A stretch of 4,019 nucleotides of DNA from a virus. Its lineage: Duplodnaviria; Heunggongvirae; Uroviricota; Caudoviricetes. The stretch lies in IMG/VR virus record IMGVR_UViG_2703718782_000019; one strand, written 5' to 3'. The stretch's first letter is position 1; every line of letters begins with the position of its first letter. Below the pieces are notes generated by a model. That model searched no databases and was not told where the DNA came from. It saw nothing but the letters and a program-made list of their open reading frames with translations. Positions 1-3,966 of this stretch are shown one piece after another. The position numbers were made by a program, and so were the translations under genes.

Positions 1-2943
<2,943 letters not shown>

Positions 2944-3046
2944 ACAGCCTTCCCCTGAATAAATTAACCGCCACTTGCCATTCCGTACAGAAGTCGGATA
3001 TCCTTCGCCCGAAAAGCATGAAACACATTTCTGCCATGCTAAAGAG

Positions 3047-3082
3047 AAACCCCGGTATCAGCAGATACCGGGGTTTTCTTTC
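3047..3082. terminator. Bidirectional Rho-independent terminator hairpin
   Basis: Perfect 13-bp inverted repeat AAACCCCGGTATC (3047-3059) / GATACCGGGGTTT (3064-3076) around a 4-nt loop AGCA. The GC-rich core CCCCGGTATC/GATACCGGGG is followed by TTTTCTTTC on the plus strand and by TTTCTCTTT on the minus strand. Confidence 0.55.
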
Positions 3083-3148
3083 ATGCCCACCGATAATCCT
3101 GTTGGTTAAAACCGGTAATGGCATAAAAATTCTGAATATCTTCACATT

Positions 3149-3176
3149 TTCACACACTGACTGTGGCGCTTATAAT
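3149..3176 (+). promoter_or_regulatory. Sigma70-type promoter, -35 TTCACA (3149-3154), 16-bp spacer, -10 TATAAT (3171-3176)
   Basis: Perfect -10 hexamer and a 5/6 match to the -35 consensus at 16-bp spacing. An AT-rich tract lies upstream (GCATAAAAATTCTGAATATC), and a second TTCACA copy sits at 3141-3146. Predicted transcription start is about 3183-3185. It points away from J and towards the 3' end of I. Confidence 0.5.
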
Positions 3177-3182
3177 TTCGCT

Positions 3183-3280
3183 GCGTTAGTGTTTTTTTGC
3201 CCGAGTAACAAAAACAACTCCTTAACATTGATCTTCATTTGTCTGTCCCCGCAGCTCCGCGATCACTGCGGGATTTTTTT
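3183..3280 (+). ncRNA. Candidate small RNA of about 98 nt (promoter to intrinsic terminator), convergent with I
   Basis: Bounded by the TTCACA-16-TATAAT promoter and the terminator at 3247-3280. There is no ATG in the transcript and no plausible ORF. The layout is a 5' region with a CA-rich single-stranded stretch (UAACAAAAACAACUCCUUAACA), an AU-rich stretch (CAUUUGUCUGU), then a GC hairpin and U7 tail, which is typical of Hfq-dependent sRNAs. Confidence 0.35.
3247..3280 (+). terminator. Rho-independent terminator: GC-rich stem plus T7 tract
   Basis: Stem CCCGCAG (3248-3254) / CTGCGGG (3266-3272), loop CTCCGCGATCA, followed by A then TTTTTTT (3274-3280). On the minus strand the hairpin is preceded by an A-run rather than followed by U's, so it is plus-strand specific. 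It ends 6 nt from the I stop codon. Confidence 0.6.
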
Positions 3281-3285
3281 ATGTT

Positions 3286-3966
3286 TTATCCCTGTCGCCC
3301 GACAACCACGACCGTTCCGCCCCCGCCTTCATCACGGGTGCTGATGTCCTGGGATATACGGCGGGAGCCAACCAGCATTTCCCCGTAAGGCACCGGCATC
3401 GGGTTCCCCTGGGCAATCATGTTATCCAGCGAGGAAAAGTACGTGTTCTGTCTGCCGTTATCCGTTGCGCGGTAATCCGGTGTTTTTGCCTTCGGGGCCA
3501 GCATCTGGGCCACACCGCCCAGAATCATGCTGGCTCCAAGTGAAAACAGCATTGTGGTGGCAGAAAAACCACCGGCTGCCAGGGCTGAACCCCATAACGC
3601 CATTGATGCCCCGGCAGTGAAGAAAGAGCCCACGATGGCTGCCGCCCCCAGCACAATCTGCAGTCCACCCTTTCCGGCCCCGGCCAGTCGCGGCACAATA
3701 TGGATGACCGTTCCCTCACCCAGCTGTTCGTGAAGACGGGCGTACACCGCCTCCGGTGCCGTGTCATAACCGGCAATACGTATCTGGTACCAGCCTTCGT
3801 TCATCTGACGGCGAAAGCCCGGCACCTGTAACGACAGCGCCCGGATGGCTTCCGCTGCCGTGTTCACATACAGGCTGAGGCGGCGGCCAAATCGTTGTAA
3901 ATCCCCGTGAAGGCAGATGCGTGCCAGTGGCGGTGACGCCAGACAGAATGCGTTCGTCGTTGCCAT
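3286..3966 (-). CDS. I: Tail assembly protein I
   Basis: 226-aa ORF MATTNAFCLASPPLARICLHGDLQRFGRRLSLYVNTAAEAIRAL...GASMILGGVAQMLAPKAKTPDYRATDNGRQNTYFSSLDNMIAQGN...YGEMLVGSRRISQDISTRDEGGGG, collinear with and highly similar to lambda gpI, which I recall as about 223 aa. ATG at 3966-3964 with GGGAGAGG upstream; stop TAA at 3288-3286. Confidence 0.9.
   Translation of the reverse strand: MATTNAFCLASPPLARICLHGDLQRFGRRLSLYVNTAAEAIRALSLQVPGFRRQMNEGWYQIRIAGYDTAPEAVYARLHEQLGEGTVIHIVPRLAGAGKGGLQIVLGAAAIVGSFFTAGASMALWGSALAAGGFSATTMLFSLGASMILGGVAQMLAPKAKTPDYRATDNGRQNTYFSSLDNMIAQGNPMPVPYGEMLVGSRRISQDISTRDEGGGGTVVVVGRQG

Follow-up and report, generated by a model that had tools for sequence, protein, structure and literature searches.

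The closest described system to the locus studied here is PasB (pathogenicity-associated sRNA B), encoded by prophage PP6 of EPEC O127:H6 E2348/69 (Pearl Mizrahi et al. 2021, PMC8550237). In this strain, PasB is an 83-nt RNA from the minus strand of NC_011601.1 (1466343..1466261; Table S6, PMC8550237), and its experimental support includes a northern blot, Hfq dependence, and many RIL-seq partners (PMC8550237). The distribution of PasB was surveyed in 2026 (Zhu, Shabalina and Storz 2026, bioRxiv 10.64898/2026.05.13.724894; below, Zhu et al. 2026), in a study that describes PasB as embedded in the structural operon and in which PasB and PasB-2 differ at position 27. In EHEC O157:H7 Sakai, three further sRNAs, EcOnc22, EcOnc23 and EcOnc24, come from prophages Sp15, Sp14 and Sp11, respectively (Tree et al. 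2014, PMC4104026; Waters et al. 2017, PMC5286369). They give Hfq-CRAC peaks and a northern band of ~85 nt, and they are destabilised in an hfq deletion (PMC4104026). RNase E-CLASH hybrids were recovered for them with 1-2 reads each (PMC5286369).

We analysed a 4,019-nt stretch of Caudoviricetes DNA (IMG/VR record IMGVR_UViG_2703718782_000019; the window), in which an initial annotation had flagged an sRNA gene. The sRNA call is right, yet it is not a new sRNA, as PasB was found and experimentally confirmed in 2021 (PMC8550237).

PasB in the spacer between tail genes I and J

We assign the flagged unit, with high confidence, to the gene for PasB, an Hfq-dependent sRNA of E. coli lambda-like prophages, and this confidence covers both the identity and the Hfq-dependent base-pairing mode. 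Alignment to the E2348/69 locus places the mature 83-nt sRNA at 3198-3280 on the plus strand, with 82 of the 83 RNA bases and the promoter region identical. In addition, the sequence of the published northern probe for PasB, AATCCCGCAGTGATCGCGGAGCT, reads exactly as the reverse complement of positions 3253-3275. The single differing base lies at position 27 of the RNA (3224, plus strand), which is A in the window and C in E2348/69. Judging from this base, the A27 allele of the window is probably the PasB-2 of Zhu et al. 2026. Because of the A rather than C at this position, the partner set of the window's RNA could differ slightly. The initial annotation had proposed an sRNA gene with a host-type promoter that is expressed in lysogens; this gene is PasB, whose expression has been shown for the E2348/69 copy, one base different. 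It had also proposed an RNA of ~98 nt starting at 3183. The terminator-ending unit stands, and its length and start give way to the mapped RNA of 83 nt at 3198-3280.

The sRNA unit is located inside a 342-bp spacer between the tail genes I and J, both on the minus strand, and is convergent with I. According to the ORF list and the annotation of identical DNA, tail assembly gene I occupies 3286-3966 on the minus strand, and its stop codon is 5 nt from the PasB 3' end; gene J starts at 2943, also on the minus strand. PasB of E2348/69 shares this locus, the I-J spacer on the opposite strand. The J-proximal part of the spacer differs: the window carries a 186-nt 'type L' module and E2348/69 an 84-nt 'type S' module. 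From folds and locus comparison, the type L module (2944-3127) lies outside PasB and holds a strong hairpin at 3048-3078. Position and strand agree with the published description of PasB, since the unit sits between I and J inside the structural operon and on the opposite strand.

The unit is confirmed, with a layout and recurrence far in excess of chance. Of 5426 complete E. coli genomes, 1612 (~30%) carry the spacer at an identity of ~85% or higher, and more than 46 sequence variants keep the arrangement of promoter, body and terminator. At nearly all loci, J is upstream and I downstream of the sRNA unit. A pattern scan of the E. coli representative genome gave no match. The species scan beyond E. 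coli returned matches in E. albertii; its other hits were two very small contigs from assemblies of unrelated organisms, which probably reflect contamination, and 9 matches due to chance. RefSeq leaves the I-J spacer unannotated in the matching genomes listed. Rfam likewise has no model for the PasB family, as all 4227 models were run over the whole window at E up to 1; this check, proposed in the initial annotation, yielded zero matches. A small-ORF reading was considered and rejected: the RNA has no AUG, and the one ORF that overlaps it, with 49 codons and a TTG start, runs antisense to gene I.

The position of PasB raises the question of whether it acts in cis, as an antisense RNA to the late tail mRNA that would lead to RNase III cleavage or would alter the expression of J and the downstream cargo after induction. 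The entire PasB gene falls within the I-J spacer that the late operon transcribes from the other strand, and the RNA is thus perfectly complementary to the late mRNA; the position of the gene between J and I is conserved, and late-strand terminator-like hairpins accompany it. However, ~250 nt separate the end of PasB from the J ribosome-binding site, and the two do not overlap. In uninduced lysogens, whose late operon is silent, PasB is also plentiful and contacts many RNAs in trans. Furthermore, complementarity in cis persists through any sequence change, so the variability of the body and seed speaks for trans targets that change. We therefore regard cis-antisense action as unlikely, and favor PasB as a trans-acting sRNA.

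Promoters, 5' end and a CRP-like site

As the initial annotation stated, a sigma70-like TTCACA-16-TATAAT promoter, P1, faces away from the late operon; the motif scan locates it at 3149-3176 on the plus strand with an 11/12 match. Between 2800 and 3500, the scan finds 3 promoter-like sites against 1.0 expected. In the -10 element of P1, A2 and T6 are kept in 54 of 55 variants, while the -35 TTCACA is kept in only 34. By its geometry, P1 would start transcription at 3183, which would add a 5' extension, GCGUUAGUGUUUUUU (3183-3197, plus strand). This extension would be transcribed only when P1 is used and is absent from the mapped RNA. In EPEC, the mapped 5' end corresponds to ~3198 of the window, at the end of a U run (PMC8550237), and EHEC CLASH fragments begin at GCCUG.

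Since the mapped 5' end is at ~3198 and not 3183, the RNA is either processed or started from a second promoter. A candidate second -10 element, P2, reads TAGTGT (TAnnnT; 3187-3192, plus strand) and is put forward from its conservation: the TAnnnT is kept in all 55 variants, including a divergent paralogue without a good P1 -10. Its predicted start, ~G3199, coincides with the mapped 5' ends. P2 is therefore a candidate for the start of PasB. The GCGTTA motif is also nearly invariant across the variants.

A more radical form of processing would make PasB a processed part or by-product of another transcript, or would reduce its motifs to insulators (terminators) between I and J. The mapped 5' end is 22 nt from a strong -10, so some processing is possible, and 16 loci keep the body and terminator without the promoter module. 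Nevertheless, the promoter region directly upstream, with its fixed spacing, CRP-like site and two -10-like elements, is conserved, and the E2348/69 RNA is Hfq-dependent and forms a discrete northern band of ~83 nt (PMC8550237). In addition, the plus strand further upstream is the antisense of J and carries the strong terminator at 3048-3078, which would stop read-through. A by-product or insulator origin is thus very improbable, and we retain PasB as a gene with its own promoter.

Upstream of P1 and reaching into its first base, we found a CRP-like site, AATTCTGA-ATATCT-TCACATTT (3128-3149, plus strand), from its consensus match and its conservation. It has 2 mismatches to AAATGTGA-N6-TCACATTT, matching at 14 of the 16 defined positions, and is the sole match in the window with at most 3 mismatches, where 0.01 is expected. 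When units were retrieved via the terminator alone, the exact CRP-like block was present in 103 of 127, and 8 of the 24 listed non-matching units keep its half-sites by reading. The N6 spacer varies while the half-sites stay conserved, and in 54 of 55 variants the site keeps a constant 36-nt distance from the GCGTTA anchor downstream. This conserved site is an addition of the present analysis to the knowledge of PasB.

The centre of the CRP-like site, 3138.5, is at -44.5 when counted from the P1 start (3183), at about -60.5 for a P2 start (3199), and at -59.5 for the mapped 5' end (3198). Textbook centres of CRP sites are -41.5 in class II and, in class I, -61.5, -71.5 and further such positions. 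The centres of the present site relative to P1 and P2 both miss -41.5 and -61.5. P1 is also near consensus, so that an activator should be unnecessary.

In E2348/69, overnight static LB cultures contain more PasB than cultures grown under virulence-inducing conditions, and in the hfq mutant its log2 fold change is -6.8 and -2.4 (PMC8550237). The expression pattern is opposite to that of CRP-repressed Spot 42, in a comparison of growth conditions that differ in far more than cAMP. The conserved CRP-like site with its fixed spacing suggests carbon-source control, which fits this published pattern. We put the prospect that cAMP-CRP at 3128-3149 helps PasB transcription at slightly short of even, as judged from the site and its conservation.

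RNA body, seed and partners

The unit ends, as the initial annotation claimed, in a strong intrinsic terminator. It consists of CCCGCAG (3248-3254) and CTGCGGG (3266-3272) around an 11-nt loop, followed by an A and U7 (3274-3280), 5 bases from the I stop codon; the whole element spans 3248-3280 on the plus strand according to scan and fold. The terminator scan itself gives a stem at 3256-3272, and the full stem is 3248-3254 / 3266-3272. A CLASH chimera shows the 3' end after the U7 run. Across the family, no structure other than the terminator is conserved; one variant has a compensatory G:C to A:U change in its stem. No conserved secondary structure is present in the 5' part: every variant folds differently, with the terminator alone in common, and the RNA body is largely unpaired in the predicted folds.

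Near the 5' end, sequence reading identifies an A-rich tract, AAC AAA AAC AAC (3207-3218, plus strand), whose four A-R-N triplets make it a candidate site for the distal face of Hfq. ARN motifs have been reported as Hfq sites (Tree et al. 2014, PMC4104026). By reading, every variant has such an A-rich tract, of roughly 3-4 A-R-N triplets, whereas its CA content is not kept, and several family members have a tract without any cytosine inside. The initial annotation described this segment as a CA-rich unstructured stretch. That description does not fit the predicted fold of the 98-nt form, in which the tract pairs with U7, and fits that of the 83-nt form, in which it is in a loop or unpaired.

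From this stretch, it was further suggested that the RNA could be an AgvB-like sponge or anti-sRNA, whose CA-rich tract would mimic the R1 targets of GcvB and titrate GcvB. Anti-sRNAs are indeed known from prophages of such hosts (Tree et al. 2014, PMC4104026), the predicted fold of the mature RNA leaves the tract unpaired, and AACAAAAACAAC of the window could provide an uninterrupted run of 6 Watson-Crick pairs with GcvB R1 (AACAAC:GUUGUU). Full-length RNAduplex runs gave long, meaningless duplexes, so the comparison used R1-only energies and the count of contiguous pairs against background. The window RNA reaches 6-8 contiguous pairs (Watson-Crick maximum 6) compared with 12-14 for AgvB (Watson-Crick 12), and runs of 6 or more occur in ~15% of background 64-nt windows. 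Its duplex energy with R1, -18.2, compares with a background mean of -19.7. The GcvB target consensus CACAACA (PMC4104026) is absent from the window RNA, and the tract's cytosines are missing in several relatives. Both EPEC RIL-seq sheets open with blocks of sRNA-sRNA pairs, and these contain gcvB::sroC but no gcvB::pasB. With complementarity at background level, a GcvB sponge is very improbable.

The probable seed is GAUCUUCAUUUGUCUGUCC (3230-3248, plus strand), a single-stranded segment directly 5' of the terminator that is unpaired in the predicted folds. Within the part of the EPEC RIL-seq data considered here, pasA.E2348C_0689.IGR::pasB is represented by 774 chimeras in 3 libraries and pasC.E2348C_1247.IGR::pasB by 54 chimeras (PMC8550237). 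Both partner regions hold one common element complementary to PasB 3230-3248: in our modeling, the PP2 and PP5 prophage RNAs each present UGACAGACAGUGACGGAUG, with which the segment forms a duplex of -18.0 kcal/mol. The body-versus-target duplex energy is -34.3, compared with a shuffle mean of -23.9 (sd 3.6). Zhu et al. 2026 (bioRxiv 10.64898/2026.05.13.724894) proposed the same region as the seed. From the modeled pairing and folds, we consider 3230-3248 to be the seed with moderate confidence.

The PP2 partner RNA is located between an esterase gene and a holin gene and ends at plus-strand terminators. In that part of the RIL-seq data, the main partner of PasB is a non-coding prophage RNA directly upstream of the holin gene. 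The predicted pairing of PasB with the holin leader places UGUCUGUC against GACAGACA. We also scanned the phage that carries the sRNA itself, the complete phage PPompW_132418 with the exact window sRNA. Among its 49 translation-initiation regions, no target stood out, with a top duplex of -22.7 compared with an average of -24.9 for the best duplexes of shuffled sRNAs.

As a separate observation, the top partner of PasB is itself non-coding, and action on another regulatory RNA is conceivable.

Taken together, the unit is best explained as the gene for PasB, a trans-acting, Hfq-dependent base-pairing sRNA. This gene is a small self-contained 'moron', with its own promoter and terminator, inserted between I and J and opposite to the late operon; cAMP-CRP bound at 3128-3149 may aid its transcription. 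The U7 tail and the (A-R-N)4 tract would bind Hfq. The seed would pair with the conserved GACAGACAGUGA of a non-coding RNA or leader, and with other mRNAs; the GACAGACAGUGA-bearing RNA or leader would end at terminators just upstream of the holin gene in co-resident lambdoid prophages.

Comparison with other prophage sRNAs

EcOnc22-24 of EHEC are diverged homologues, ~73% identical by BLAST over the 145-nt region of the initial finding, with which they align along its whole length. The likeness extends to the I-J spacer, the strand, the CRP-like site and its 36-nt spacing, and, within the unit, to GCRTTA plus the U run, the A-rich tract, AACUCC, AAUCUUCA, and the CCCGCAG/CTGCGGG terminator with U7. 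Like PasB, they bind Hfq and show northern bands of about 85 nt. In contrast, they have a 6-nt deletion in the A-rich tract, a weaker P1 (TCCGGC / AATAAT), and a different sequence in the seed region, UCAUCGUUCUCUCC against UCAUUUGUCUGUCC. The coordinates of Tree et al. need an offset of +121 to +147 on NC_002695.2, as given by the landmarks AsxR, AgvB1 and StxS. Uncorrected, they put EcOnc22 beside the J start, a placement that we rejected; CLASH reads give an offset of +135 at EcOnc22, and the read GCCTGAAAAATAACTCCATAACGTTAATCTTCA settles its placement. The PasB entry of Table S6 (PMC8550237) has no EHEC-homologue remark, and those for PasA and PasD1 do; 'EcOnc' is absent from the main text of Zhu et al. 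2026 (bioRxiv 10.64898/2026.05.13.724894). From their sequences, PasB and EcOnc22-24 appear to belong to a single family in which the scaffold is conserved and the body and seed vary strongly; this family is a further addition of the present analysis.

A broader reading would make PasB and EcOnc22-24 one fast-diversifying, CRP-controlled family, whose variable seeds target the holin or lysis leaders of other resident prophages. We consider this full reading rather unlikely, but if it were true, one prophage would tune the lysis and late-gene expression of its neighbours by the carbon status of the host. Such an inter-prophage link has not been described previously. As a discovery, PasB itself carries little weight here: it was described from EPEC in 2021 and surveyed for its distribution in 2026, and homologues in EHEC had been seen in 2014. 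Its annotation is still useful because RefSeq is blank in the listed genomes, Rfam has no model, and the locus occurs in ~30% of complete E. coli genomes. For studies of PasB function, the helpful points are the single family, the CRP-like site, and a holin-upstream partner that is complementary to the seed of Zhu et al.

HnrS (EcOnc10/11/12) is a multicopy prophage sRNA that represses hha; its copy number tracks prophage number, and it builds up in early stationary phase (Poudyal et al. 2026, PMC13502914). Unlike PasB, it has a validated target. HnrS was rejected as the identity of the window's unit on locus and size: it is 66 nt long, and its Sp10 copy is ~5 kb from AgvB1, outside the I-J spacer. 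The relation to AgvB that the initial annotation had considered did not hold up either. AgvB occupies the PR' moron site and not the tail region, its Sakai sequence is visibly different, and the Rfam models for AgvB and AsxR have no match in the window. AgvB, AsxR and EcOnc03 have a conserved 42-nt 3' region in common, and the 3' region of the Sakai AgvB and AsxR differs from that of PasB. These sRNAs, of 51-60 nt, come from the PR' moron site near the lysis genes, which holds a convergent sRNA pair. What they share with PasB is a general design: they are prophage-encoded, Hfq-binding, short and lysogen-expressed, carry ARN motifs, and combine a conserved terminator-proximal part with a variable pairing region (PMC4104026).

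PasB and its EHEC relatives

The plus-strand unit at 3141-3285 is PasB, an Hfq-dependent prophage sRNA that has already been described and confirmed by experiment. In EPEC E2348/69, PasB is assigned to NC_011601.1, minus strand, 1466343-1466261 (83 nt, prophage PP6), and was detected with the northern probe AATCCCGCAGTGATCGCGGAGCT (Table S6, Pearl Mizrahi et al. 2021, PMC8550237). Reverse-complemented, this probe reads as window 3253-3275. In E2348/69 the locus sits between a tail assembly gene and gpJ, and between the upstream site and the end of the terminator its sequence departs from that of the window at a single base, A/C at 3224. This is PasB position 27, at which PasB and PasB-2 differ (Zhu, Shabalina and Storz 2026, bioRxiv 10.64898/2026.05.13.724894). 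The probe match and the near-identical locus therefore identify the unit, for which an Rfam search of the window gave no match. The initial annotation, which proposed a prophage sRNA expressed in lysogens, was correct at its core; the RNA is the known PasB, with EcOnc22-24 as its EHEC relatives.

EcOnc22, EcOnc23 and EcOnc24 are three homologous Hfq-CRAC peaks in the Sakai prophages Sp15, Sp14 and Sp11 (Table S2, Tree et al. 2014, PMC4104026), with a northern band of ~85 nt and destabilization in an hfq deletion (PMC4104026). The coordinates of Tree et al. do not coincide with those of the current Sakai record, and the offset was calibrated on AsxR (+135 to +140), AgvB1 (+137 to +147), and StxS (+121 to +128), chosen for their recognizable sequences. 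All three peaks map to I-J spacers, each in an orientation opposite to I and J. Their fragment in the RNase E-CLASH table has the read sequence GCCTGAAAAATAACTCCATAACGTTAATCTTCA (Waters et al., PMC5286369), which is 2139-2171 of L002, the body of the Sakai homologue. Judged by sequence, PasB and EcOnc22-24 are two members of one family. This connection is absent from both PasB papers: the PasB entry of Table S6 has no EHEC-homologue note, unlike those of PasA and PasD1 (PMC8550237), and 'EcOnc' does not occur in the main text of Zhu et al. (bioRxiv 10.64898/2026.05.13.724894). In Supplementary file 4 of PMC5286369, EcOnc22 is named 'asxR2', apparently through a find-and-replace step (EcOnc2 to asxR), so that anyone who mines this file could be misled.

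Promoter, 5′ end and family layout

The promoter reported earlier, TTCACA-16-TATAAT, is present at 3149-3176 with an 11/12 match (P1), as is the plus-strand terminator, whose stem CCCGCAG (3248-3254)/CTGCGGG (3266-3272) is followed by U7 at 3274-3280, ending 5 nt before the stop codon of gene I. An RNA of ~98 nt from 3183 had been expected, and this is what P1 predicts, but the mapped RNA begins at 3198 and is 83 nt long. The 99-nt stretch has an ordinary fold energy (z = -1.3) because the terminator is its sole stable structure. The CA-rich stretch, described as unstructured, is paired with the U run in the predicted fold of the 98-nt form, and is in a loop only in that of the 83-nt form.

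Two pattern scans of IMG/VR yielded more than 150 loci, in which the promoter-plus-RNA stretch takes 55 different forms and the RNA itself 46. In all variants eleven elements follow one another in constant order: the upstream TCTGA-N6-TCACATTT block, a variable interval of 36 nt, GCGTTA, a U run, a short G+C-rich patch, an A-rich tract, AAYUCY, a highly variable segment of 8-10 nt, AAUCUUC, a second variable segment, and the CCCGCAG...CTGCGGG-U7 terminator. RNAalifold keeps the terminator alone, with one G:C to A:U compensatory change, and the fold of the 5′ body changes from variant to variant. Some phages carry two-unit tandems, 179 nt apart (L009, 9820-10147; L064; L084; also L050 and L060), each unit with its own CRP-like site and terminator; one tandem unit is a divergent paralogue whose terminator differs (CCCGTTAAT…ATTGCGGGAG). 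Among species-representative genomes the family occurs in E. albertii only, two probable contaminant contigs aside. These two, of 460 bp from a Parendozoicomonas haliclonae assembly and of 3.4 kb from a Streptomyces flavalbus assembly (L161/L164), carry typical E. coli EcOnc22/PasB-type loci and are most likely E. coli DNA contamination.

The mapped start, 3198, is the last U of a U7 run; the most 5′ RIL-seq read begins one base before it, and the EHEC CLASH fragments all begin at the equivalent GCCUG. The P1 transcript may be processed to this end, and the P1 -10 element is well conserved, with A2 and T6 in 54 of 55 variants. Alternatively, the RNA may start from a candidate second promoter, P2, whose TAnnnT hexamer begins within the invariant TTA of GCGTTA (here TAGTGT, 3187-3192). 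The hexamer is present in all 55 variants, including the divergent paralogue with a decayed P1 -10, and a G or C stands at the observed 5′ end, ~6 nt past it.

Upstream lies a CRP-like site, AATTCTGA-ATATCT-TCACATTT (3128-3149), which shares 14 of the 16 defined positions with the CRP consensus and is the only match in the window with at most three mismatches (0.01 expected). Among 127 units retrieved via the terminator alone, 103 have the exact block; of the others, eight keep the half-sites with a point change, as judged by reading, and sixteen are without the whole promoter module, having lost it by recombination. The N6 spacer varies while the half-sites are constant, and 54 of 55 variants place GCGTTA 36 nt away. 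Since the centre of the site is at -44.5 from P1 and at ~-60.5 from P2, a class I arrangement with P2 would fit better than class II with P1. The higher PasB level in overnight LB is consistent with CRP activation, without proving it. In the sixteen IMG/VR loci without the promoter module (L129-L142, L154-L156), the PasB-like body and terminator are kept and the CRP-like site and promoter are swapped for unrelated sequence, which ends in its own plus-strand terminator (GGTAAGGGGCGGGCCCCTTACC-TTTATT), with the breakpoint between CTCTG and AGTTAATG. Such copies may be silent or otherwise expressed.

The I-J spacer

The minus strand of the window is the end of a lambda-like tail operon, in which the tail assembly gene I (ORF, 3966..3286) and gene J (ORF, starting at 2943) are separated by a spacer of 342 bp (3285..2944). 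Many STEC/EPEC chromosomes have this spacer at 100% identity, between neighbours annotated 'tail assembly protein' and 'gpJ', and non-O157 STEC share 3141-3285, also at 100% identity, in their PPompW prophages, a lambdoid element of the dicA/dicC type with paa, espO, nleG, and espM. Of 5426 complete E. coli genomes, 1612 have a spacer match of ~85% identity or more; in the best 30 of the 1612, no annotated feature lies under the match. The J frame (1135-1190, minus strand) runs into a stop at 1135 (…IVDNG-stop), and J reads on in another frame. In this copy J thus appears to have suffered a frameshift or an internal deletion, which suggests that the prophage is defective.

Near J, within 2944-3127, a very stable 10-bp hairpin CCCCGGTATC/GATACCGGGG (3048-3078), with an A run on one side and a T run on the other, resembles an intrinsic terminator whichever strand is transcribed, according to folding predictions (z = -8.2 and -8.4). 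It belongs to the 186-nt type L module, the longer of two J-proximal modules, found in about one third of loci; in locus L105 precisely this hairpin is deleted. Upstream of the hairpin is a weak plus-strand site that resembles a promoter (TTGCCA-18-TATCCT, 2975-3004), from which a second short plus-strand RNA, antisense to the J leader, could conceivably be transcribed. The shorter type S module has a hairpin CAGGCAYCC-N4-GGRTGCCTG (2030-2051 of L002, with equivalents in most family loci) with compensatory C:G to T:A changes between variants. As the hairpin is followed by UUGUUUUU on the late (minus) strand, it resembles a terminator of that strand, placed shortly before the J ribosome-binding site.

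Partner RNAs, probable seed and comparison with AgvB

PasB was confirmed by northern blot, with Hfq-dependent stability and higher levels in the non-activating condition, overnight static LB (PMC8550237); it is down by log2 6.8 and 2.4 in the hfq mutant relative to wild type, and ranks 15th by number of RIL-seq interactions (PMC8550237). The non-activating RIL-seq sheet has one outstanding partner of PasB, 'pasA.E2348C_0689.IGR' (plus strand, 743482-743611), with 774 chimeras and presence in all three libraries, followed by 'pasC.E2348C_1247.IGR' with 54 (PMC8550237). Neither PasB nor EcOnc22-24 has a validated target, and a 2021 review gives those of EcOnc22 as 'unknown'. The PP2 partner region lies between the SASA esterase and holin genes and ends at plus-strand terminators 50-120 nt ahead of the holin start; the PP5 partner is a near-identical copy. 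The main partner (L175 2683-2860, NC_011601.1 743482-743660; L176, 1290834-1291070) is a conserved plus-strand RNA of ~130-180 nt between SASA esterase and holin, an IS element following instead in PP5. It has two plus-strand terminators at its end, overlaps the PasA 5′ end head to head, and has no Rfam family.

Both partners contain UGACAGACAGUGACGGAUG, which is predicted to pair with PasB GAUCUUCAUUUGUCUGUCC (3230-3248) at -18.0 kcal/mol, and the whole-body duplex reaches -34.3 kcal/mol versus -23.9 (sd 3.6) for shuffled PasB bodies. The 3230-3248 segment is single-stranded in predicted folds and unchanged in the window allele, and a seed in the same region was proposed on conservation grounds (Zhu et al., bioRxiv 10.64898/2026.05.13.724894). 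In a scan of a complete PPompW phage, none of its 49 translation-initiation regions gave a pairing above shuffled controls. PasB is also fully complementary to the late mRNA spacer, and could act on that mRNA as a cis-antisense RNA; this is improbable, as it leaves unexplained both the variable seed and the abundant trans partners in uninduced cells.

The initial annotation had suggested a GcvB sponge of the AgvB type, which our data do not support. With GcvB R1 of MG1655, the window RNA forms 6 contiguous Watson-Crick pairs, or 8 with G-U, as against 12 and 14 for AgvB. Background 64-nt windows average 4.8 and 9.5, and ~15% reach at least 6 Watson-Crick pairs. The R1 duplex energy is likewise at background (-18.2 versus a mean of -19.7), and both RIL-seq sheets list gcvB::sroC and no gcvB::pasB in their sRNA-sRNA blocks (PMC8550237). 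The A-rich tract at 3207-3218 consists of four A-R-N triplets, AAC AAA AAC AAC; relatives keep ~3-4 such triplets and often lose the cytosines, e.g. UAUAAGAAUAAU, so that an Hfq distal-face site, as in Tree et al. (PMC4104026), would fit this tract better than a GcvB decoy. AgvB carries CACAACA and sits at the PR' moron site (Tree et al. 2014, PMC4104026), there in a convergent sRNA pair, and Sakai AgvB is visibly different from PasB in sequence.
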